A stretch of 64,000 bases of DNA from Candidatus Kapaibacterium sp. (GCA_044350705.1 JBILHA010000001.1:244242-308241); one strand, 5' to 3'; counted from the first letter of the stretch, positions 1 to 11,413 are shown. The notes: a model not told the origin generated them from the sequence alone. Translations and numbers: made by a program.

Positions 1-260
1 TTCTTGATCAATCGCAATTTGATCGCTTTAACGAAGGTGAAATTTTGGTGACCGGCATGACGCGACCGGAGTTTGTGCCACTCATGAAAAAAGCTGCAGC
101 GATTGTGACCAATGAAGGGGGAGTTACTTGCCATGCGGCAATTGTCTCCAGAGAACTCGGAAAGCCATGCATTATTGGAACAAAAAATGCAACATCGCTT
201 ATTCCCGATGGCGCAACCATTGAAGTGCGTGCAAATCATGGCACGGTTCGAGTATTGTAA
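1..260 (+). CDS. C-terminal fragment of a PEP-utilising enzyme (PEP synthase / rifampin-phosphotransferase-like); only the mobile phosphohistidine domain is in the window
   Basis: Translation ...[45 protein letters not shown]... shows the conserved [17 protein letters not shown] swivel-domain motif. The ORF is open to the window edge (codon phase starts at nt 3). Confidence 0.75.
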   Translation, partial: LDQSQFDRFNEGEILVTGMTRPEFVPLMKKAAAIVTNEGGVTCHAAIVSRELGKPCIIGTKNATSLIPDGATIEVRANHGTVRVL

Positions 261-351
261 TCTCCTATAAACGACAGAGACCCCGCATCTTGTCTCGCGC
301 CCCGATTGGGCGCGGAACAAGGCACGGGGCCACGGTCACCAGACAGGGTGA

Positions 352-948
352 CTAGCTGGAGAGACGCATCTCTCTCTCGAGGGTGGCGTTGCCATCCTCG
401 TCGATGGCCAGCGTGACGCCTTCGCCCGGCTTGAGGGCCGGGATGCTGACGCCGGTCAGCATCTTGATCGCCACCTCGGCGCAGGGCGAGTGACTGGCGA
501 CGAGCGCCATCTCGCCCATGGGGAGGTTGTTGATGATCTCCCGGAAGGTGTGAAGGATGCGGTCTCCGACGCTCTCGATGAAGCTCGGGTAAGCGGCCTC
601 GATCCTTTCGAGGGTCGAGCCCTTGTCGCAGTGGGCGATCCACTCCTCCATCGTGGCACCCATGAGATCCACCGTACGGGTGGCCTCGGCGACATTGAGG
701 TGCCCACCGGCGATCAAGGCCGCGATCATCTGGTGCGTCCGCATCAGCGCCGAGGCATAGCACCGGGTGATGGGCTGACCCAGGAGGTACTCGCCGCCGG
801 TGACCCTCGCGATCTCGATGCCCCGCGGAGACAGCATCTCCGGACGGCCGTTCTCCTCGTCCTTGAGGTCGTGCCGGAAGAGGAAGATGCCACGGCGGTT
901 GGGGTTGGTGGCGATGGGATCGTTCGAGTCGTCCTGAGGGATTGACAT
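352..948 (-). CDS. Histidine phosphatase superfamily protein (phosphoglycerate-mutase-like)
   Basis: N-terminal RHG-type motif (IFLFRHDLKDEENGRPEMLSPRG). Very GC-rich gene with overlapping spurious ORFs on both strands, typical of a high-GC insert in a lower-GC genome. Confidence 0.6.
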   Translation of the reverse strand: MSIPQDDSNDPIATNPNRRGIFLFRHDLKDEENGRPEMLSPRGIEIARVTGGEYLLGQPITRCYASALMRTHQMIAALIAGGHLNVAEATRTVDLMGATMEEWIAHCDKGSTLERIEAAYPSFIESVGDRILHTFREIINNLPMGEMALVASHSPCAEVAIKMLTGVSIPALKPGEGVTLAIDEDGNATLEREMRLSS

Positions 949-1102
949 GGTTGCTCCTTTGAGCGTCTGAGGTACGGGAAGGTTCTTACGAATTATTTAG
1001 TTTTTTGCCGCGTTGGCGCAAACTGATGATTTTTCAGAACGAATAATACAACCATGAACATGCTTCGCGGTCAATGTATTTGTTGTAGTTTTGGCACAAC
1101 AA

Positions 1103-1897
1103 CTAGCGTTTCGTGGGAGCGTTTACCGGAGGTTCGGAGATAGACCAAATGATGTCAAAGAGGCTGTTGAGGGTTTTGAAAACATCTGCAGATTCAAGGA
1201 CTGCAGCATAGGTATGCGTGGGACGTGCACTGATAAAAGCCACCTTCTCATCGTAGAGATAAATGAGTACGGGAAGATCTCCGGGGATGGGTGCATAGCG
1301 ATAGTCACGGAGAAATTCTTTCCCTATGCCAATAAAAAGTTTTGCGGTTTCATTTTGCGTTTCTTTCCAGGCGAGAGGACGGATGGATTGATGATCGACC
1401 CCGCGTGCGATGCGACGTTCAGCCCAGCTCATCATCCATTCTTCGGTGAAAATACGACGGAAGTCTTGCTGATTGAATCCTCCGATATGGCGATAGAATT
1501 TTTGATGTGATTCAAGGATCTCTTCAAGGATGAGTTTTACTCCTGCGGAATCGGTATAGTAACGAAAGGCTGGCTTTGCGGGAGATGCGGTTGCATAAAG
1601 CGTGAGAAGTGCGGGAATAATCATTTCTGATTCCTGCATTTTTTCTTTGATAATTTCTCCTAAAATACCTGGATTTGCAGGACTGAATATGCGCACGCCG
1701 CTCTCAACATTTACGTGCACTAAGCTCCGTTCTACGAGCTCTTCGAGATGACGATAAATAACTGTGCGATGCAGGCCGGCGCTTTTTGCAATGTCATTTG
1801 CTTTGCTCTTACCTAGCTTGAGACAGGCAAGATAGGTATTTGCTGTGTCGCAATCTAGGCCAAATATTGCGAGAGAATCTGCAAGATCTTTTTTCAT
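1103..1897 (-). CDS. TrmB-family transcriptional regulator
   Basis: N-terminal winged-HTH resembling TrmB (…DIAKSAGLHRTVIYRHLEELVERSLV…) followed by a TrmB-like C-terminal domain. Start chosen at MKKDL; the ORF track extends to 1921. Confidence 0.6.
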   Translation of the reverse strand: MKKDLADSLAIFGLDCDTANTYLACLKLGKSKANDIAKSAGLHRTVIYRHLEELVERSLVHVNVESGVRIFSPANPGILGEIIKEKMQESEMIIPALLTLYATASPAKPAFRYYTDSAGVKLILEEILESHQKFYRHIGGFNQQDFRRIFTEEWMMSWAERRIARGVDHQSIRPLAWKETQNETAKLFIGIGKEFLRDYRYAPIPGDLPVLIYLYDEKVAFISARPTHTYAAVLESADVFKTLNSLFDIIWSISEPPVNAPTKR

Positions 1898-1973
1898 ACT
1901 GTTGTGTTTTTGAGACAACAAAATCCTTGTTTTTCATTTATTTATGTGCTATTATGGCATTTAGTATCAATAA

Positions 1974-2924
1974 ATGCAACAGATTTTTATGTTTGTACAG
2001 TCGTTTCAGACGTTGTCAAAACATGACACGCGTCTTGCGGGAGGAAAAGGGGCGAGCTTGGGAGAAATGACGCAGGCGGGCATTCCGGTTCCTCCAGGAT
2101 TCGTTGTTCTCCGTACGGCATTCGATCGCTTTCTTGAAGACGCACAGCTGACTTTGGAAATTGAGGCCGTGCTTGATAAGGTGAATTGCGAAGATGTTGC
2201 TTCAGTTAATCGTGCTTCGCGAGTGATTCATGATCTTATTCATGACGTGTGTTTTCCTGAAGATCTCGAAAAAGAAATTTTATCAGCTTTTGATGAGCTT
2301 GGTTCAGAATTTGTGGCGGTACGTTCCTCTGCTACCGCTGAAGATTCTTCTACGGCAAGCTGGGCGGGCGAGTTAGAAAGTTATTTGAATACTACGCGTG
2401 AAGTACTTTTAGAGCATGTAAAGAAGTGTTGGGCCTCGCTGTTTACGCCTCGTGCCATTGTATACCGTAATGAAAAGGGTATGCGGAGTACGCGTGTTTC
2501 GGTTGCGGTCGTTGTACAGAAAATGGTGCAGTCAGAAATTTCTGGAGTGACGTTTACCGTACATCCGGTTACGCGTGATATGAATCAGATGATTTTAGAA
2601 GCATGTTGGGGGCTAGGAGAATATATTGTAGGGGGAGTGGTAACTCCTGATTCGTATATTTTCGATAAAAAAGACGGAACTATTTTGGATATGTATGTAG
2701 CTGATCAAGATCGCATGTTGATTCGGGGCGAAAAAGGAAATGAGGATGTTCCTGTACCGATTGAGAAAGTGAATGCACAAAAGCTTGATAGCAGACAGAT
2801 ACGTGAGTTTGGAGATATCTGTATACGCATTGAAAAGCATTACGGATTTCCTTGTGATATTGAATGGGCGATGGAGGGTGGGGCGTTTTACGTTGTTCAG
2901 AGTCGACCAATTACTACATTGTAA
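1974..2924 (+). CDS. PEP-utilising enzyme, N-terminal ATP/pyruvate-binding (PPDK_N-like) domain as a stand-alone ORF
   Basis: Hallmark [10 protein letters not shown] motif near the N-terminus. Ends ...[20 protein letters not shown], exactly at the domain boundary. Confidence 0.7.
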
Positions 2925-2932
2925 ATTTTTCT

Positions 2933-4006
2933 ATGCAAAAAGAACTTTCACTTATTTTTACTCGTGATTTTTCAATGTTTACTTGTGATTTTTGGCATAT
3001 ACTCATGACGGATGTTATCGCTCAGGCATATGGTGTTTCATTTTCTGGACAAGTTATTGCATTTAACGGTCGCGCTATAGAATGTTATCGACCTAGCGAT
3101 GAAATGCGTAATATAAAAGAACGCATCATTCATTTGCCTGAAAGTCACGATCTTTTTTCTCAGAAAAATCGCATTGCATTTGAATGTGCGGTGCGTGATG
3201 CCCGCGCAATCATTCAGCGCATAAAAGGATCTTCTCGAGAAGAGTATTTCGATCTTGTTTCTGACTTGCTTGATGCCTGGAAGCGCTTCTATCCGCATTA
3301 TATGCTCGCCAATTTTTTACCTGGACCTTGGCGAGAAGAATTTTTATCAATGGGTGATGCATGGAGAGATACTGTGATAAATGAATTCACGTATGATCGT
3401 CATGCATGTGAAGGGGTATTTGAAGCTGCCGATATTGCCATACGTGAAGCGTTGCGTTTGTGCCTTGAGAAGCTATCTGTTTCTGTAAAGTATGCAGAAT
3501 TTCTTTCTTTCAATGAGGCGATGGCTTTGTTACGAGAAGATCGCGTGCCGAATCTCCCTCATTTAGAAGAGCGGATGCGTGGTTATTTTATGATAGGAGA
3601 CGCGGTACATATGGACACCTCTTTTGATGTATTGATTTCGAAGTTTGGTTATTTTTATCGTGCTCCTGAAGTTGAAAAAGGACAGAGGGAGTTTAAGGGA
3701 GCTGTTGCGTTTTCCCATGCACCTGTTCGAGGTAAAGTATTTTGTATTTTTACTTACGATCAAGTAGGTAATTTTCCTGAAGGCGCAATTCTCGTAGCGC
3801 CGATGACCGCTCCTGAATATTTATCTGCAATGAAACGCGCACGTGCGGTCGTGACTGATGAGGGAGGTGTTACATGCCATGCAGCAATTGTGAGTCGAGA
3901 ACTTCAAATACCTTGTGTTATTGGTACCAAAGTAGCGACTCGGATTCTTAAAGAGGGTGATGAGGTAGAGGTAGATGCAGAGCATGGTATCGTGCGCATT
4001 CTTTAA
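2933..4006 (+). CDS. PEP-utilising enzyme, central domain plus C-terminal mobile phosphohistidine domain (second half of a split PEP synthase / rifampin-phosphotransferase-like enzyme)
   Basis: C-terminus ...[27 protein letters not shown]... is paralogous to the fragment at 1-260. Starts 9 nt after the stop of the preceding PPDK_N ORF, in a different frame. Confidence 0.65.
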
Positions 4007-4090
4007 GATCCGAAAAAGATATTTCATGTCATGATTGAGGAGTGGCGAGTTTGATTGCTTTTTTCTCCAATATTGGTTATCTTTTTGCGC

Positions 4091-5272
4091 ATGTCTGCAA
4101 AGAAAAAAGTACTCTTAGGTATGAGCGGGGGCGTTGACTCGAGTGTCAGCGCAGTTTTGCTTTTGGAGCAGGGGTACGAGGTTATTGGGGGGTTCATGAA
4201 GAATTGGAGTGGGGGGACGGATGGGATGGATGATGACGGATTAGACGGATCAAAAGACTGCGGATGGAAAAATGAGCGACGTGATGCAATGCGCGTTGCT
4301 GCGCAGTTAGGCATTCCGTTTCATACGTTTGATTTTGAAAAAGAGTATCGAGAGCGAGTGTACGAATACATGATCGCCGAGTATAAGGCGGGGCGAACGC
4401 CGAATCCTGATGTGCTTTGCAATAAGTACATGAAATTTGATTTGTTTTTGAAAGCCGCCGATGAACTTCAGTGTGATTTTGTAGCGACTGGTCATTACGC
4501 ACGAAAAACCGTAGATGAACGAGGGATTGCGCATTTACTCCCAGGGGTAGATACAAATAAAGATCAAAGTTATTTCTTGTGTCAGTTGACACAGTCACAG
4601 ATTGCTCGCGCATTGTTTCCGATTGGACACCTGCAGAAAAGCGAGGTGCGTGACATTGCCCGAAAGCATGATTTGTTTGTTGCAGAGAAGAAGGATAGCC
4701 AAGGTATTTGTTTTGTAGGCGCGGTTGCGATGAAAGATTTTCTTGGTGCGCGTATTGCGGAACATCCAGGAAATATTGTGACTACTGATGGAAAAGTGCT
4801 TGGGCAGCATTGCGGATTTGAGTTTTATACGATCGGGCAGCGAGAGGGGTTGGGTGTGGGAGGGAGAGGGAGTGATCCGGCGAGTAGCCGGACGGGAGGG
4901 AGTAAGGGGAGTAGAGGGAGTACGGAACCGCTTTATGTCGTAGAGCGTCGGCCTGAAACAAATGAAATTGTTGTTGCGGTGGGAGATGATGATCCGGCGC
5001 TGTATAAGTCGGTGCTGCGTGCCGGGAATATTACCGAGACGTACACGGGCGCACTTGCTACTTACGAAGGAAAGAACATTTCTGCGCGTATTCGCTATCG
5101 TCAGCCGCTCGCTGAATGCGGATTTGTGATACTTTCTTCGATGCAGGGAGGAGATGCAAAAGACGCGGTGGTTGAAGTGACCTTTTCCTCGCCTCAGCGA
5201 GCGATAGCGCCTGGACAATTTATTGCGTTTTATTACGGAGAAGAGTTGTTAGGCTCGGGGATTATTTCTTAA
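4091..5272 (+). CDS. mnmA: tRNA-specific 2-thiouridylase MnmA
   Basis: PP-loop SGGVDSS and conserved MnmA core (NPDVLCNKYMKFDLFL…ATGHYAR). Carries an in-frame G/S-rich insertion (…[18 protein letters not shown]…) in the linker before the C-terminal domain. Confidence 0.85.
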   Translation: MSAKKKVLLGMSGGVDSSVSAVLLLEQGYEVIGGFMKNWSGGTDGMDDDGLDGSKDCGWKNERRDAMRVAAQLGIPFHTFDFEKEYRERVYEYMIAEYKAGRTPNPDVLCNKYMKFDLFLKAADELQCDFVATGHYARKTVDERGIAHLLPGVDTNKDQSYFLCQLTQSQIARALFPIGHLQKSEVRDIARKHDLFVAEKKDSQGICFVGAVAMKDFLGARIAEHPGNIVTTDGKVLGQHCGFEFYTIGQREGLGVGGRGSDPASSRTGGSKGSRGSTEPLYVVERRPETNEIVVAVGDDDPALYKSVLRAGNITETYTGALATYEGKNISARIRYRQPLAECGFVILSSMQGGDAKDAVVEVTFSSPQRAIAPGQFIAFYYGEELLGSGIIS

Positions 5273-5973
5273 AATTGAGTAATCCATGCGGGTGCGTATT
5301 GCACGAGAAATTTTTCCATACGTTTAAACGTTCCCGTTGCAAGAAAGAGTGCAGTGATAATGAGGAGAGTGCCAAACGCTTTTTTGAGGAGCGGATTGTA
5401 TTTTTGAAATATTTCTTTTCCTTTGAGGACTTTTTGGCCGCCATAGGCAATAAGGAGCATGGGCAGACCGGCGCCGATTGCATAAAGCAAGAAAAGTATT
5501 CCTGCAAAGGGTGCGTTTTTTGCGGTTGAAGAGAGGATGATGATGGAACCAAGAACAGGGCCTGCGCAAGGCGCCCATACAAGACCGAGGAGCGCGCCAA
5601 GAAAGAATGCTTCACTTGGCTGATGTAATGCTGCGGCTTGTGGAGTTTTTTGAGAGAGTTTGGCAAAAAGTTGGCTTGTGAGCGCGGAAATTTTTGTTTC
5701 GAGAGGCGGGATGAGTAATATTACACCCATGAATGCAAGGAGCCAGTATGCGATTGTGTGGAGGATTCTTCTGTCAAAGGGAAGAAGGTCGCTGAAGATG
5801 CCGAAGAGCAATCCAAAGAAGGTGAATGCAGTCGCCATGCCAACTACCGCAATGAGGGGGTAGCGTTTGTCTTGTTTGAGTGCAGACCCGAGAATGATGG
5901 GTACAAGGGGAATGATGCAGGGAGAGGTGACGGTAATGATGCCCGCAAAAAATGCGAGGATGAGCATGTTCAT
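5269..5973 (-). CDS. ccdA: Cytochrome c-type biogenesis / thiol-disulfide transporter CcdA (DsbD transmembrane-domain family)
   Basis: Multi-TM protein with the CcdA signature ...TSPCIIPLVP... and a second Cys (WAPCAGP). Start set at MNMLIL (5973); the ORF track's 108-aa N-terminal extension is unlikely to be real. Confidence 0.7.
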   Translation of the reverse strand: MNMLILAFFAGIITVTSPCIIPLVPIILGSALKQDKRYPLIAVVGMATAFTFFGLLFGIFSDLLPFDRRILHTIAYWLLAFMGVILLIPPLETKISALTSQLFAKLSQKTPQAAALHQPSEAFFLGALLGLVWAPCAGPVLGSIIILSSTAKNAPFAGILFLLYAIGAGLPMLLIAYGGQKVLKGKEIFQKYNPLLKKAFGTLLIITALFLATGTFKRMEKFLVQYAPAWITQF

Positions 5974-6048
5974 AGCGGATGGGTTAATTATAAAAGAAGA
6001 AACCCCATCTAGCCATCGATGCTTTTCTTTGTTAGCATAGATGCGATT

Positions 6049-7848
6049 ATGATTCCTCAAGAGCGACTTCGAAACTTCTGCATTATTGCCCATATTGACC
6101 ACGGAAAGAGCACGCTCTCTGACCGGTTGCTTGAAGTTACGAAAACGGTTGAAACGCGGCAAATGAAGGATCAGTTGCTCGATTCCATGGATATCGAGCG
6201 CGAACGTGGGATTACCATTAAGCTCGCTCCTGCGCGCATGAAATGGACGAAGGACGGGCAGGAATACACGCTGAACCTCATTGATACGCCAGGGCATATC
6301 GATTTTAACTACGAAGTTTCCCGTTCTCTTGCGGCTGTAGATGGGGCAGTGCTTTTGGTGGATTCTACGCAGGGTGTCCAGGCACAGACGGTGGCCAACC
6401 TCTATTTGGCCATGGAAGAGAATTTGGAGATTATTCCCGTTCTTAACAAAATCGATCTTCCTGCTGCGGATGTTCCTCGTCGCAAGGCGGAGCTTGTGAA
6501 ATTGCTCGGATGTAGGGAAGAAGATATTCTCGCGGTTTCAGGAAAGACGGGTGAAGGCGTTCCTGCACTTCTTGATGCGGTAATTGCGCGCATCCCTTCA
6601 CCAAAAGGTGAAGCGCAAGATGCTCCGCGCGCGGTTGTTTTTGACTCCGCGTACGATGATTACAAAGGCGTTGTTGCGTATGTGCGCGTGGTTGATGGTG
6701 TTTTCCGTAAGCGAGAGAAGTTGCACATGATGGCAACTGATGCTGATGGAGAAATTTTAGAATTGGGCGCACTCAAGCCGAAGTTTTCCCCGCTGGACTA
6801 CTTAGAAACCGGACAGATCGGCTATATCGTGACGGGACTTAAGGATATTCGTGCATGTCGTGTGGGTGACACGCTCACGATCGGAAATAATATCGTGACG
6901 CCGCTTGAAGGATATCGTGAAGTGCGTCCGATGGTGTTTGCGGGTATTTTTCCGGCATCCGGCGATGAGTATTCTGCGCTTCGGGATGCGATGGATCGTT
7001 TGAAGCTCAATGATGCGGCGCTTGTATATGAGCCTGAGCATTCGCCTGCGCTCGGTTATGGATTCCGTTGTGGATTCCTCGGCATGCTTCACTTGGAAAT
7101 TCTCAAGGAGCGTTTGAATCGCGAGTACAATATTGATCTTGTCGTCACACTTCCTTCGGTTGCGTACCGTGTATTTAAAATGGGAGAAAGCGAGTATCAG
7201 GTTATTAAAGGCGCGCTTGATCTCCCGGATCCTTCGTTTATCGAAAAGATTGAAGAACCTTGGGCGAAAGTCGACATCATTACGCCTGCGGAATACATCG
7301 GAAACGTTATGCAGTTGTGTCAGGAGCGTCGAGGAACGTATCTCACAACCGAGTATCTTTCTGAAGGTCGTGCAATGCTGCACTACGAATTGCCGCTTTC
7401 TGCGATTATCGTTGATTTTAATGATCGTTTGAAGAGTGCGACGGCGGGGTATGCGTCGCTCACGTATGATGTGTTTGAATATCGCGAAGCGGATATTGTG
7501 AAGCTTGAAATTTCCGTTGCCGATTCTCCGGTTGATGCGTTTGCGTCACTTGTCTATCGCGATGAGGGAGAGCGTGTGGGTCGTCGTATTCTTGAGATTC
7601 TTCAAGAAACCATTCCGCGTACGCAGTTCGTTATTAAGTTGCAGGCATCAGTGGGAGGAAAGATTGTGGCTGGTGAACGTATTTCCGCGATGCGTAAAGA
7701 TGTCACTGGCGGACTCTACGGCGGTGACTATACGCGTAAGCTCAAGTTGTTGCAGAAGCAGAAAAAAGGAAAGGCAAAAATGATGGCGATGGGTGTAGGA
7801 AATGTGGAGATTCCTGGTGATGCGTATCTCAAAGTATTGAAACGGTAA
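6049..7848 (+). CDS. lepA: Elongation factor 4 (LepA)
   Basis: GTPase motifs AHIDHGKST, DTPGH, NKID and a LepA-specific C-terminal domain. An alternative start lies 30 nt upstream (6019). Confidence 0.9.
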   Translation: MIPQERLRNFCIIAHIDHGKSTLSDRLLEVTKTVETRQMKDQLLDSMDIERERGITIKLAPARMKWTKDGQEYTLNLIDTPGHIDFNYEVSRSLAAVDGAVLLVDSTQGVQAQTVANLYLAMEENLEIIPVLNKIDLPAADVPRRKAELVKLLGCREEDILAVSGKTGEGVPALLDAVIARIPSPKGEAQDAPRAVVFDSAYDDYKGVVAYVRVVDGVFRKREKLHMMATDADGEILELGALKPKFSPLDYLETGQIGYIVTGLKDIRACRVGDTLTIGNNIVTPLEGYREVRPMVFAGIFPASGDEYSALRDAMDRLKLNDAALVYEPEHSPALGYGFRCGFLGMLHLEILKERLNREYNIDLVVTLPSVAYRVFKMGESEYQVIKGALDLPDPSFIEKIEEPWAKVDIITPAEYIGNVMQLCQERRGTYLTTEYLSEGRAMLHYELPLSAIIVDFNDRLKSATAGYASLTYDVFEYREADIVKLEISVADSPVDAFASLVYRDEGERVGRRILEILQETIPRTQFVIKLQASVGGKIVAGERISAMRKDVTGGLYGGDYTRKLKLLQKQKKGKAKMMAMGVGNVEIPGDAYLKVLKR

Positions 7849-7857
7849 GTTCCTTGT

Positions 7858-8307
7858 TTACTTTTTCTTTTTTGCTGCGATTGTGGCGGGAAGAATAACG
7901 AAAGCGAATCCTGTCATTTCACCCATAACGCTTGTAAAAAATGGGAGAACGAAAGCTGCTCCTATCCAGTTGGCAACATTTGGGGCAAATGCGCTTGCTA
8001 TGACATATGCGGTCATAGCTGCCCCGAGATGCAGCACGAATGCTTTTGTGAGCGCTATTCCTGCAGGCATATAGTATTCATGGATGGGAAGTATGCGTTT
8101 TTCTTTTAAAAAGAGTTTTCCTTGTATGGCAATGGGAACGAGAAGGCTGTACCAAATGGCTATTGCCGTTCCCGTGTCCAGTTCGTTCATGAAGGAGAAA
8201 TTGTCTTCATGCATGCCGGCGAGGATGAGGAAAGAAAAAAGTATGCGGATGCCATGTTCTATTGCATAGAGTGAGAGGCGAGTGAGGTTTTGTACGGTGT
8301 TGGTCAT
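7858..8307 (-). CDS. Hypothetical integral membrane protein
   Basis: Four predicted TM helices; no recognisable motif. Confidence 0.35.
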   Translation of the reverse strand: MTNTVQNLTRLSLYAIEHGIRILFSFLILAGMHEDNFSFMNELDTGTAIAIWYSLLVPIAIQGKLFLKEKRILPIHEYYMPAGIALTKAFVLHLGAAMTAYVIASAFAPNVANWIGAAFVLPFFTSVMGEMTGFAFVILPATIAAKKKK

Positions 8308-8310
8308 AGC

Positions 8311-8340
8311 GAAAAACCACCCTCGAAAGAGGGTGGTTTT
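8311..8340 (-). terminator. Rho-independent terminator hairpin (ACCACCCTC-GAAA-GAGGGTGGT) flanked by A/T runs
   Basis: Perfect 9-bp stem with GAAA loop lying between two minus-strand genes. Confidence 0.6.
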
Positions 8341-8342
8341 AA

Positions 8343-8582
8343 TTAGGAATTCTTTTTTAGGGCGACGATCAGGGCTGCGATACCGAGTGGAATAGGAATC
8401 CAGAAGAGATCTGCGAGCTCTGAGAGATGTGAGGATCCGGATCCTACGACGTACATTATTCCCGAGGCCACGAACGCAAGGCCTGCGATAAGCGAGGCGA
8501 TATTTTTATTCATACCGCATAAGTATAGCGTTTTTTTGACCTTTGCACAGTCTTTTATTCGCTGCCCTTTTTCTATCTTCAC
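8343..8582 (-). CDS. Small hypothetical membrane protein
   Basis: Two TM helices; the true start is possibly MNKNIASL. Confidence 0.3.
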   Translation of the reverse strand: MKIEKGQRIKDCAKVKKTLYLCGMNKNIASLIAGLAFVASGIMYVVGSGSSHLSELADLFWIPIPLGIAALIVALKKNS

Positions 8583-8622
8583 AAATTTCTTCTTTTTTGG
8601 TATGCTCTTGGCGCTTCATTTT

Positions 8623-8697
8623 GCGCTGGTAGCTCAGTGGTAGAGCAAAGGCCTTTTAAGCCTGTGGTCGTGGGTTCGATCCCCACTCGGCGCACCA
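8623..8697 (+). tRNA. tRNA-Lys (anticodon TTT)
   Basis: Manual cloverleaf: acceptor GCGCTGG/TCGGCGC, D-arm GCTC-AGTGGTA-GAGC, anticodon loop cTTTTaa, T-arm GTGGG-TTCGATC-CCCAC, encoded CCA. Confidence 0.85.
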
Positions 8698-8935
8698 TAA
8701 AAATCTGACAGCATGTCTGTCGGGTTTTTATTTTATCTAAAATAATCGAACCCACGACGGTTCGATGGTCAAGCGAGTGAGTGGAGCTATAAAGCTGAAT
8801 CTATGCGCTTTATAGCTCCCGAACGAGCACCGACTCAATCCGGAGGCGTAGCCGAGATCCCCGCTCGGCGCACCACAAAATCCCGATCGCAGGTCTGTCG
8901 GGTTTTTGTTTTTGAAACAGGTATAATCTTGGTAT

Positions 8936-11413
8936 ATGGAGGAACGAGGGTGGCATGTCATGAGTGCAGAGGACGTTTTGCGGGTCGTACGAGGAACCCG
9001 AGAGGGACTGTCTCTTGCGCAAGTAGAAGAGCGACAGCGTACATATGGAAAAAACGTTTTGCCTGAGCGGGATCGCATTTCTCCCTTGCGTATTTTCTTT
9101 CGCCAATTTCTTTCTCCTTTAGTCGCTCTCTTGTTTATCGCGGGGGGAGTTTCTTTTTTTCTCGGAGACGTTGTTGATGTTATAAGCATTCTTCTCGTGC
9201 TCTTTTTTAATGCCCTTTTAGGATTCTTTCAGGAATATCGTGCTGATCAGCGCATGCGAGCGTTACGTGCAATGGTGGGGACTTTGGCAACGGTTGAACG
9301 TGCCGGACAGGTGCTGCAGATTCCTGCGGAAGAACTTGTGCCCGGAGATGTGCTTTTTTTACGTGCGGGCATGAAGGTAGGTGCTGATGCTCGTCTTTTT
9401 GCGGTGAATGACCTTGCGAGTCATGAAGCGGCGCTTACGGGAGAAAGTCGCGAAGTGGAAAAGCGTACTGAAGTTCTCCCTTCCCCCGTTCCTTTGTTTG
9501 AGCGATCGAATATGGTGTTTATGGGAACGGCGATCTCTCGGGGTACGGGAAAGGCTCTTGTAGTGGCTACTGCTGGACAAACCGTTTTTGCACGTATTGC
9601 GCATGAAACGCAGCAGACAACGGGGGGAGCGAGTGGTTTTGCGAAGGAATTGAAAAAGACGGGCTTTCTTCTCTCTGGCATCGTTCTTTTTCTTTCCGGA
9701 GGACTCTTTTTACTGGGGATACTTCGGGGTGAAGATGTTTTTTCCATGCTGCAAGTCAGTATTGCACTCGCTGTTGCGGCGATTCCTGAGGGTTTATTGA
9801 TCGCTACCACGGTTGCGCTTGCCGTCGCGCTTCAGCGTATGGCAAGGGAGAAGGTGCTTGTGCGTGAGTTGGGAGTCCCTGAACGTATGAGCGCCGTCAA
9901 TGTTCTTTGCGTTGATAAGACCGGTACTTTGACCGAAGGGAATATGAAGGTGGAGGTATGTGATACTTCTCGTCCTGAAACGGTTCGTTTAGCACTTTCT
10001 GCACTGACTGAGCAAAGTAGAAAGCATGCTTCTCTCGCGCTTTCACTTACCGAGCAGGCGTTGGCGCAGTATATTGTTCGTCAAGGTATCGAAGATGTTG
10101 CGGTTATTCAGAGCGTTCCTTTTTCTTCTGCGACAAAGTTCAGTGAAGCCACCATACAGCGCGAGCGTCATGTTCATACGTTTCGACTTGGTGCTCCTGA
10201 AATGCTCCTTGCTTTACTTTCTGAGGAGTCTTCCGTCGTCGTAGCTCTTCGAGAGCGAGCGAGCGCGCTCACACGAAAAGGGTATCGCGTGCTCACGCTT
10301 TTAGAACGTGAATCGGTTTCTGAGCACTTTGCTTTTCTTGCTTTTTTTGGAATCGCAGATCCTTTGCGTGACGATGCTCAAGAAATGGTCGCACGTATAC
10401 AAGAACAAGGAGTGCGTTTGCTTATGCTTACAGGGGATCATCGAGAAACTGCCCAAGCTGTCGCGCGCCGGTTAGGTATGGAAGGCGAGTGTGTTCATGG
10501 AGATGAGTTGCGGGGTTTATCTGACGCCGATCTTGCACGTCTGTTGCGGAAAGTGAGCGTTATTGCGCGTATGGTTCCTCAAGATAAACTTCGTATTGTG
10601 CGTGCTTTGCAGGCAGATGGTGCGGTGGTAGGTATGACCGGTGATGGGGTAAACGATGGCCCCGCGCTTGCGGCTGCGGATGTAGGCATCGCTCTTCACA
10701 GCGGTACCGATGTTGCGCGTGAAGTTGCCGATGTCGTACTTATGGACGATCGGCTTGCCACCATCTCCCATGCGCTGGAAGAGGGACGAGGAACTTTTTT
10801 GGCATTACAACGGATCTCCGCATATCTGCTCATGCTTTCTTTGGCAAAAATGGGCGTTTTTACGTTTGCGCTTTTATTTGGTGTTCCTGTGCCGCTTTCG
10901 CCAGTGCAATTGCTTTGGCTGAATGTCGTGACCGATGGGATTCTTGCGCTTGGGCTTGCCACGTTTGTTTCGTATGATGCGTTGGATGTCGCATTGCCTC
11001 GGAATAAGATGGAGGGTATTTTTTCTCTTCCTTTTCGACGATTCTTGGTTATTGCGGTGGGCATTCTTACGCTCCCCTTGTGTATGATGTTTCTTTTTAC
11101 CCTTTCACTTTCTGGGCCACAAGCTGCGGGAATATTTTTCGCAGCCTTTGTTTTAGATGCGCTTGTGATGCTGTGGTTTTTTGCACGAATCAAGTCGGTG
11201 CATTTGGGGGTTTTTTTGTTCGTTATCTCTTTTCTTTCTCTTGGAGCTTCATTTTTCCCCTACATTCTTTTTTCCCATGACCTGTCTTTTCCTTCGCCGG
11301 GGATATTTCTTCTTCTTTTCTTTATTTCGCTTCTGAAATGCGTTTTCCTCTGGGCTGTTTGGCGCGTTATCCTCGTACGTAAAGCGTCTCTTTCTCCCGC
11401 ACTGGTATCATAG
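8936..11413 (+). CDS. Cation-transporting P-type ATPase (P2-type, Ca2+/Mg2+-like)
   Basis: Motifs DKTGTLT (phosphorylation site), MLTGDH, GDGVNDGPAL, an N-terminal cation-ATPase-N domain and 10 TM helices. Confidence 0.85.
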   Translation: MEERGWHVMSAEDVLRVVRGTREGLSLAQVEERQRTYGKNVLPERDRISPLRIFFRQFLSPLVALLFIAGGVSFFLGDVVDVISILLVLFFNALLGFFQEYRADQRMRALRAMVGTLATVERAGQVLQIPAEELVPGDVLFLRAGMKVGADARLFAVNDLASHEAALTGESREVEKRTEVLPSPVPLFERSNMVFMGTAISRGTGKALVVATAGQTVFARIAHETQQTTGGASGFAKELKKTGFLLSGIVLFLSGGLFLLGILRGEDVFSMLQVSIALAVAAIPEGLLIATTVALAVALQRMAREKVLVRELGVPERMSAVNVLCVDKTGTLTEGNMKVEVCDTSRPETVRLALSALTEQSRKHASLALSLTEQALAQYIVRQGIEDVAVIQSVPFSSATKFSEATIQRERHVHTFRLGAPEMLLALLSEESSVVVALRERASALTRKGYRVLTLLERESVSEHFAFLAFFGIADPLRDDAQEMVARIQEQGVRLLMLTGDHRETAQAVARRLGMEGECVHGDELRGLSDADLARLLRKVSVIARMVPQDKLRIVRALQADGAVVGMTGDGVNDGPALAAADVGIALHSGTDVAREVADVVLMDDRLATISHALEEGRGTFLALQRISAYLLMLSLAKMGVFTFALLFGVPVPLSPVQLLWLNVVTDGILALGLATFVSYDALDVALPRNKMEGIFSLPFRRFLVIAVGILTLPLCMMFLFTLSLSGPQAAGIFFAAFVLDALVMLWFFARIKSVHLGVFLFVISFLSLGASFFPYILFSHDLSFPSPGIFLLLFFISLLKCVFLWAVWRVILVRKASLSPALVS

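Follow-up and report, generated by a model that had tools for sequence, protein, structure and literature searches.

Enterobacterial O-antigen (rfb) clusters are hypervariable cassette loci with conserved flanks and a persistently low GC content, and phage 'morons' are autonomous promoter-gene-terminator units of deviant composition that are found inserted between two genes. Horizontally acquired islets, as treated in the amelioration framework of Lawrence and Ochman, provide a third point of comparison for the locus analyzed here, which lies near the start of a 64,000-nt stretch of DNA (the window) and shares features with all three. With such islets it has in common a discontinuity of GC content and codon usage that is confined to one gene, presence/absence polymorphism among near relatives and some phylogenetic incongruence; it differs from them in that the homologues occupying the same slot in other lineages are also GC-rich, lie behind a homologous promoter and adjoin a gene that is saturated at synonymous sites, with no visible donor, mobility genes or repeats. 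The compositional deviation of the island behaves as a persistent rather than as a transient property. As in the O-antigen loci, conserved flanks are combined with highly divergent alleles, with histories discordant with those of the flanks and with a compositional offset common to all alleles, but here a single small cytoplasmic enzyme gene is involved, the offset is towards high GC and there is no obvious reason for diversifying selection. The moron comparison is apt in that one such unit of deviant composition is exactly what is gained or lost at this site. There is, however, no prophage context, and no homologue was found among 50,697 phage records, plasmids or IMG/VR viral contigs.

As regards the encoded protein, the closest described system is SixA of E. 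coli (PDB 1ujb/1ujc), a branch-1 histidine phosphatase that dephosphorylates the phosphohistidine of NPr and the catalytic intermediate of Ndk (PMC7948535, PMC6282199, PMC12934123). Both proteins are of minimal single-domain type and conserve an R-H nucleophile motif, a second arginine and a second histidine, and the gene described here adjoins genes for proteins with a catalytic phosphohistidine, the known SixA substrates being phosphohistidine carriers or intermediates (PMC7948535, PMC12934123). The differences are nonetheless substantial: identity in structural alignment is about 17%, the motif is RHD or RHS instead of RHG, and our protein presents an extra helical insert (residues ~85-140), a C-terminal beta-hairpin and, in this genome, an 18-residue N-terminal extension of low confidence.

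Composition and integrity of the GC-rich segment

Positions 262-960 of the window have a GC content of 64.2%, against 47.1% in the remaining 63 kb. The most GC-rich 700-bp interval of the whole 64 kb (281-980) reaches 64.7%, with the runner-up at 55.3%, and the island stands at z=6.3 with respect to all other 700-bp intervals. The sharp shift at about 260-960 noted in the first-pass annotation is thus real and bounded. With approximate edges, the GC-rich segment (64%; no strand) can be placed at 271-975, where it spans the leader proximal to the Shine-Dalgarno sequence, the coding sequence and a 3' hairpin. The windowed analysis of GC, GC3 and codon usage that had been suggested there also reveals a strong deviation of the phosphatase gene (352-948, minus strand), which has GC1, GC2 and GC3 values of 0.60, 0.45 and 0.89, the corresponding means for the 49 other long ORFs being 0.59, 0.41 and 0.42 (GC3 sd 0.047, maximum 0.56). 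Since GC3 lies at z=10 while GC1 and GC2 fall inside the host range, the GC signal of the island is almost purely synonymous. Codon choice is the inverse of that of the host, with ATC accounting for 100% of isoleucine codons (19% in the host) and GCC for 70% of alanine codons (11%), and with C in 55% of third positions as compared to 14%. The proportion Arg/(Arg+Lys) is 0.78 for the phosphatase and 0.57 for the host.

Four mutually overlapping ORFs (236-763, 352-948 and 456-707 on the minus strand, 490-945 on the plus strand) do exist in this segment, as had been reported. The accompanying claim that all six frames stay open applies to three of them, with 0, 1 and 2 stops, but not to the other three, in which 5, 8 and 13 stops occur where the background is about 8 per 705 nt. 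The openness of the antisense frames was not counted as evidence for an antisense gene, because it follows from the avoidance of A-ending codons in the phosphatase gene. Genes of this kind are easily mis-annotated: in the homologous island of one related lineage (L094), the gene caller missed the phosphatase and called a spurious antisense ORF instead.

Such an abrupt change of composition could also have arisen from a chimeric join or from contamination of the contig by a fragment of high-GC DNA, as the first-pass annotation had proposed as one of two options. Beyond the abruptness itself nothing speaks for this explanation, to which we give practically no credence. Nine contigs, assembled from different samples by three pipelines (JGI, Logan and ENA), encode the exact phosphatase protein with constant neighbours. 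DNA could be retrieved for seven of them, and it shows 100% identity to the window over the two junctions. A matching gene order recurs in other species and lineages.

The phosphatase and its family

The island encodes on the minus strand a 198-aa protein of SixA-like size, a divergent branch-1 histidine phosphatase. It passes the gathering cutoff of Pfam PF00300 (His_Phos_1) marginally, with 23.7 bits against 21.7 (E=4.4e-5, residues 39-172), and has the alpha/beta fold of the phosphoglycerate-mutase type. Across 25-42 family members, the core residues R25, H26 and R70 never vary, and conservation of H153 is 90% or more. The original assignment to the histidine phosphatases accordingly stands in terms of family, fold and catalytic core; the RHG motif on which it had been based does not, the residues being R25-H26-D27. 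The family consensus is RRHS, and the third position of the motif is occupied by D in this protein and by S in the majority of relatives, but by G in neither. No NCBIfam model, SixA included, matches the protein at E<=0.01. When the family profile was compared to solved structures, the best match was a putative SixA (4hbz, E=4e-11), while the match to E. coli SixA (1ujb; E=3.5e-4) was confined to the 60 N-terminal residues. The protein is, hence, a genuine member of branch 1 of the histidine phosphatases, as small as SixA, and lies outside the SixA orthologous group.

Relatives of the phosphatase are sparse. A word-indexed search of 5.8 billion clusters returned only the protein itself, and phmmer, run exhaustively with the single sequence against 1.84 billion representatives, yielded 46 matches at E<=1e-3, the best of them (41% identity) encoded in the same genomic slot. 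These matches define a very sparse and previously undescribed SixA-like phosphatase subfamily, which a profile search enlarged to at least 89 members, with Uhrbacteria, Patescibacteria, Eisenbacteria and Acidimicrobiales as the named taxa among the few labelled ones. No homologue above 43% identity was found among the 1.84 billion representatives, and a scan of the whole GTDB collection of species genomes with the protein detected no close relative. Contrary to the expectation that the best matches would come from other, high-GC taxa, they come from the lineage of the neighbouring genes (29-43% identity) and from the slot following trmB.

Organization of the locus

The window opens with the 3' end (1-260, plus strand) of a gene coding for a 559-aa protein with HTH_26 and PEP-utilizers (phosphohistidine swivel) domains (Pfam PEP-utilizers, E=1e-22), of which a full-length copy is visible on a sister contig and which is convergent with the phosphatase gene. 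On the opposite side, upstream of the phosphatase gene and co-directional with it, lies trmB (1103-1921, minus strand; called start 1897, 264 aa), encoding an HTH regulator of the TrmB family (Pfam TrmB, E=2.7e-10) with orthologues at 65-82% identity; the two neighbours had been correctly named from the outset. Divergent from trmB is a gene (1974-2924, plus strand) for a PPDK_N protein, the ATP-grasp nucleotide-binding domain of the PEP synthase/rifampicin-phosphotransferase type (Pfam PPDK_N, E=7e-98), whose NCBIfam matches to PEP synthase and RPH-type models cover the N-terminal third only and fall below the cutoff. It is followed by a gene (2864-4006, plus strand) for a 380-aa protein composed of an uncharacterised N-terminal region and a C-terminal PEP-utilizers swivel domain (Pfam E=2.8e-27, residues 304-375), which aligns with the RPH/PRK06241 models at their C-terminal ends. 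Judging from this domain content, the PPDK_N and swivel proteins appear to be the split ATP-grasp and phosphohistidine parts of an RPH/PpsA-like phosphotransferase. The product of lepA, 5 kb from the island, is 82-89% identical to proteins from MAGs of Patescibacteria and Candidatus Uhrbacteria.

The island would constitute a complete gene unit, with its own promoter, leader, coding sequence and long terminator hairpin. A Shine-Dalgarno sequence, AAAGGAG (954-960, minus strand), can be read directly 5 nt 5' of the ATG at 948. Further upstream, a promoter-like element (1043-1074, minus strand) consists of a -35 hexamer TTGACC (1074-1069), a 17-nt spacer and TTGTAT (1051-1046), with TATTAT (1048-1043) as an alternative second hexamer at 20 nt. 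Strict consensus promoter and terminator scans of positions 200-2100 called nothing, and the promoter is thus assigned by homology across lineages: in L094, L095, L096, L098 and L099, TTGACC is followed after 17 nt by TATATT, TATGTT, TATCTT or TACCTT, at an equal distance from the hairpin that follows trmB. The latter, a short inverted repeat located right after the trmB stop codon (1077-1105, minus strand; arms 1077-1086 and 1096-1105), folds weakly in the window (-6 kcal/mol, z=-1.45) and has homologues of the form TGTTG..CAACA in L090 and L094-L099.

A much longer, GC-rich hairpin (264-347, minus strand) is revealed by inverted-repeat and minimum free energy (MFE) analysis in the gap that separates the stop codon of the phosphatase gene from that of the convergent PEP-utilizers gene. 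Its MFE is -49.7 kcal/mol (z=-5.1), with none of 200 shuffles as stable, and it is single-copy in the window and followed by a T-rich, terminator-like tail. A motif shared by this 3' hairpin was found, within 1.4 Mb of fetched sequence, only after phosphatases of the type designated A below. The hairpin is probably a terminator, possibly a bidirectional one, which the consensus scan did not pick up because its U-tract is weak. A search for known RNA elements in the leader and the 3' hairpin gave a chance match to mir-52 only (E=0.27).

A conserved slot downstream of trmB

The TrmB orthologues were located on their contigs in order to compare the slot across lineages; a metagenome scan with TrmB added only relatives at 20% identity. 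A phosphatase homologue lies directly 3' of trmB and on the same strand in L094, L095, L096, L098 and L099, the TrmB proteins of which are 65-80% identical to that of the window, and the more distant L100 presents the same arrangement of the two genes with a post-trmB region that is only loosely similar. In all five contexts of sufficient length, trmB has divergent genes on its other side, one for a PPDK_N protein and between one and four for PEP-utilizers proteins. Across the window and L094-L099, the post-trmB hairpin, the TTGACC-17 nt-TAxxxT promoter, the leader and the Shine-Dalgarno sequence are homologous, and the spacing between hairpin and promoter is fixed. The 3' hairpins of L094 and L096 are likewise 85-93% identical and include a compensatory pair change, although the coding sequences that they follow share only ~58% nucleotide and 41% amino-acid identity. 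These comparisons establish the phosphatase unit as a resident of the trmB slot in at least six lineages of these ultra-small bacteria.

The picture is mixed, since the phosphatase is present in five or six related lineages and absent from the sister lineage L090-L093 (TrmB 79%), which displays an empty site. In L090, where the hairpin is retained, only this hairpin and 7 nt separate the trmB stop from that of the convergent HTH_26/PEP-utilizers gene, a gap of 29-30 nt. With respect to this site, the indel comprises exactly one promoter-gene-terminator unit of ~812 bp (~261-1072, no strand). The window and L090 are the closest pair by TrmB distance, and their outgroups carry the gene, so that the empty site is best read as a loss. 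On parsimony applied to the distances of one gene, the unit was probably lost by deletion in L090-L093.

These data bear directly on the idea, also advanced in the first-pass annotation, that this genome has recently acquired the gene in a single horizontal transfer from a high-GC donor. The extreme GC3, the inverse codon usage, the sharp boundaries and the raised Arg/(Arg+Lys) proportion all point in that direction, as do the absence of the gene from the closest TrmB relative with a visible slot and the lack of a close relative in the GTDB scan. The gene is also absent from 80 GTDB loci around lepA (61 from Patescibacteria, the rest from Chloroflexi) searched by tblastn and with the profile, although lepA lies in a different genomic region in these relatives, and an Acidimicrobiales MAG carries a family member that is compositionally native. 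Against this, five or six lineages that branch outside the window/L090 pair carry homologues in this slot, preceded by a homologous promoter, which makes presence the ancestral state and the L090 site a loss; the nearest relatives are these slot genes and not proteins of high-GC taxa; and the slot homologues are just as GC-rich, beside trmB genes that have reached synonymous saturation. In addition, a recent import that keeps a GC3 of about 0.9 should have a near-identical homologue in its donor, and none was found in protein collections, GTDB species genomes, phages, plasmids or viral contigs. The foreign look of the composition is therefore upheld, whereas a recent import specific to this genome is improbable.

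Signatures of mobility are missing as well. Neither an integrase nor convincing flanking repeats, target duplications or terminal repeats were detected around the island, the neighbours of which are a regulator and metabolic genes, with the nearest tRNA at 8623. Insertion sequences, integrons and MITEs were discarded on the lack of terminal repeats and target duplication and on the hairpin not being a dispersed repeat. An integron gene cassette was rejected in view of the single-copy, terminator-like hairpin and of the lack of an integrase or array nearby, the attC consensus having been compared by eye only. A diversity-generating retroelement was also dismissed, as there is no reverse transcriptase or repeat in the vicinity and divergence extends over the whole coding sequence. 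Related genomes contain, roughly once every 130 kb, other single genes with an elevated if milder GC3 (0.68-0.84), indicating that foreign high-GC genes do enter these genomes, which counts against the maintenance reading preferred below.

Origin of the high synonymous GC content

Every lineage with a slot homologue shows the synonymous GC richness of the phosphatase gene. Its GC3 exceeds that of its own trmB in the window and five other lineages. The respective values are 0.89 and 0.42 in the window, 0.96 and 0.48 in L094, 0.75 and 0.60 in L095, 0.94 and 0.55 in L096, 0.82 and 0.56 in L098, and 0.86 and 0.52 in L099. The phosphatase is also GC-richer than its own locus in L100, L102, L104 and L105, the last of which has a 64% GC gene with sharp edges inside a 50% GC locus, and it is compositionally native only in the Acidimicrobiales MAG locus L103, with surroundings of 64% GC. 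For TrmB, each of the 15 pairs has an NG86 dS that is 2 or more (2.3 for L095/L098) or cannot be calculated, and four-fold identity ranges from 0.20 to 0.47, chance being 0.28, so that synonymous sites are saturated in every lineage pair. Under the amelioration model, neutral decay over such distances should have erased a shared foreign signature. An ancient foreign origin of the gene is possible, but it cannot by itself explain the present GC3.

The history of the phosphatase is, on sequence evidence, partly non-vertical. Its coding sequence diverges much faster than the flanks, nucleotide identity falls sharply at the cassette borders, and there is no correlation between the distances of the phosphatase and those of TrmB (Spearman 0.14-0.28). 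L095 and L098 are the clearest case, with 83% identity between their TrmB proteins, 36% between their phosphatases and a phosphatase/TrmB dN ratio of 6.1, where most pairs show ~2-2.8. A crude NJ tree resolves three deep types, A (window, L094 and L096), B (L095 and L099) and C (L098), and places the clade with the Acidimicrobiales member among the CPR types. Together, the dN-ratio outlier and the tree incongruence make it likely that alleles have been exchanged at least once while the flanks were conserved.

Such exchange is the basis of the main rival to a GC content maintained in place, namely that a conserved slot has been repeatedly refilled with cassettes from high-GC donors, each copy being young and un-ameliorated. 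The donors could be GC-rich relatives within the clade or the host organisms of the episymbionts. Apart from the L095/L098 incongruence, the three deep cassette types, the drop of identity at the cassette borders and the native high-GC member in Acidimicrobiales are in agreement with this proposal. So are the existence of Uhrbacteria relatives reaching 60% GC and a GC3 of 0.78, enough to account for L095 and L098, and the well-documented horizontal transfer in Patescibacteria, most detected cases of which are between Patescibacteria (PMC12455944). The homology of promoter, fixed trmB-hairpin spacing and terminator across lineages counts against it, because donors would need the same flanks and should then belong to the same clade, where the GC content would again need to be maintained. 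Moreover, a same-clade high-GC donor was considered and rejected, given that the GC-richest relative examined does not exceed the above GC3 of 0.78 and that the 0.89-0.96 of the extreme copies lies above anything observed in the clade. No near-identical donor is found among the 1.84 billion representatives, GTDB species genomes, plasmids or phages, and an integrase, a target duplication and an attC-like site are all absent. We regard serial replacement as rather unlikely.

The explanation that we favour, with modest confidence, is that the phosphatase gene is a resident and independently transcribed member of a module of Uhrbacteria-type Patescibacteria, the high synonymous GC of which is maintained within these genomes and the product of which resets or opposes the adjacent kinase module. 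We infer maintenance from the combination of lineages that are saturated at synonymous sites and the lack of a close donor. The high GC3 would be held up by a force specific to the gene: the GC content of the transcript or of the DNA may itself be under selection, or the locus may recombine and be subject to GC-biased repair or conversion. A cause in selected global mRNA structure is not convincing, since synonymous permutations of four homologues gave weak and mixed results (z=-0.7, -2.05, -2.2 and -0.6). A gene standing, in several lineages, some 45 GC3 points above its genome over more than saturating divergence may, we suggest tentatively, reflect selection or GC-biased conversion working against mutational drift, or else re-capture from high-GC hosts. 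No description of a persistently GC-rich gene in a conserved slot was found in the literature searched.

Predicted function and significance

The module would be made up of trmB followed by the small SixA-like histidine phosphatase, with the split phosphotransferase, composed of a single ATP-grasp protein (PPDK_N) and between one and four proteins with a PEP-utilizers swivel domain, divergent on the other side of trmB. With H26 as the predicted nucleophile, assisted by R25, R70 and H153, the phosphatase would strip phosphohistidine from the neighbouring swivel proteins, in the manner of SixA, or hydrolyse their phosphorylated small-molecule product, and either activity would reset or oppose the adjacent kinase module. 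From its gene neighbourhood alone, the substrate is most plausibly the swivel phosphohistidine or the phosphorylated product. Family members outside the trmB slot (L102-L105) do not adjoin PEP-utilizers genes, so that the link with the phosphotransferase holds only for the trmB-slot subgroup.

Compositional outliers are routinely read as recent transfers or as binning or assembly errors, especially in CPR MAGs, and this one appears to be neither. The comparisons between lineages suggest that a gene can keep a deviant base composition as a stable property. What favours G+C at bacterial synonymous sites is a long-debated question and, if maintenance is true, the locus would offer a natural system of ~600 bp, replicated in several independent lineages and with a matched neighbour as control, for the forces that favour synonymous G+C in bacteria. 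If the hosts were instead the source of re-captured copies, the cassette would act as a molecular signpost to the hosts of Uhrbacteria episymbionts. Finally, a phosphatase subfamily tied to TrmB and to split PEP-utilising phosphotransferases in Patescibacteria is a lead, open to testing, towards a so far uncharacterised phosphotransfer module of bacteria with a minimal metabolism.

Genomic context and related populations

Gene orientation in the window is strongly biased, with 43 of the 50 long ORFs on the plus strand (1-64000), and the GC skew is positive over almost the entire stretch, which makes it probable that the whole window belongs to a single replichore; among its few minus-strand genes are those for the phosphatase and TrmB. 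Contigs derived from seven or more different samples and runs (L001-L007) match window 1-3000 at 100% identity over 1.2-3 kb, and this identity points to a single near-clonal population that has been repeatedly sampled or is widely spread.

Compared with window 1-5300, the closest GTDB relatives (L008-L012, LepA 82-89%) retain the MnmA-LepA synteny, and the module of trmB, PPDK_N and PEP-utilizers genes is entirely absent from them within 10 kb upstream. Hence, close relatives differ in where the module lies or in whether they have it. Many GTDB records, including L008, L009 and L011, are titled 'uncultured Gammaproteobacteria bacterium'. Given that the LepA of these records is 85-89% identical to that of this Patescibacteria genome and that the MnmA-LepA synteny is shared, such titles look like placeholder mislabels.

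GC-rich genes and gene calls

High GC at third codon positions (GC3) opens antisense frames and thereby misleads gene callers. In the GC-rich island of L094, a related locus with a phosphatase homologue after trmB, the public gene call is an antisense ORF of 221 aa (6854-7519, minus strand) for which no homologues were found. The real gene of this island is the phosphatase homologue on the plus strand (6896-7474), the product of which has the GATMEEWIAHC motif in common with the window protein.

In L105, where the family member lies outside the trmB slot, a second GC-rich island comprising a single gene (7795-9423, minus strand) is found some 1.2 kb away from this phosphatase homologue. The surrounding locus has a GC content of about 50%, and the encoded protein (about 509-543 aa, GC3 0.84-0.86) has no Pfam match. 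Related Patescibacteria loci with a GC content of 45-49% contain further genes of elevated GC3 (0.68-0.75), roughly one in every 130 kb: L068:9014-9910, L011:18174-19034 and L011:165-752, all on the minus strand, and L022:11265-12671 on the plus strand. Of these four, one appears to encode an orotidine-5'-phosphate decarboxylase and another encodes an Asp-rich repeat protein.

Composition of the module

Between PPDK_N and trmB, the related locus L100 carries an unannotated gene of 323 aa (5040-6011, minus strand), with a counterpart at L101:120-1091. The phosphatase family profile matches its product weakly (E=2e-5). Possibly, the module has in this protein a second, highly diverged histidine-phosphatase-like member.

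In the window, the PPDK_N ORF (1974-2924) and the ORF after it share 61 nt (2864-2924) if the latter is read at its greatest length (2864-4006). One public call has this second gene start further downstream (357 aa), which leaves its actual start uncertain.

In the module, a single PPDK_N gene precedes PEP-utilizers swivel-domain paralogues arranged in tandem, the number of which varies from four (L094:1-5906) to two (L100:1380-5015 and, in the related locus L095, 2438-5887) and one (window 1974-4006). The N-terminal regions differ among the paralogues of these arrays, as if several substrate modules were served by one ATP-grasp partner.
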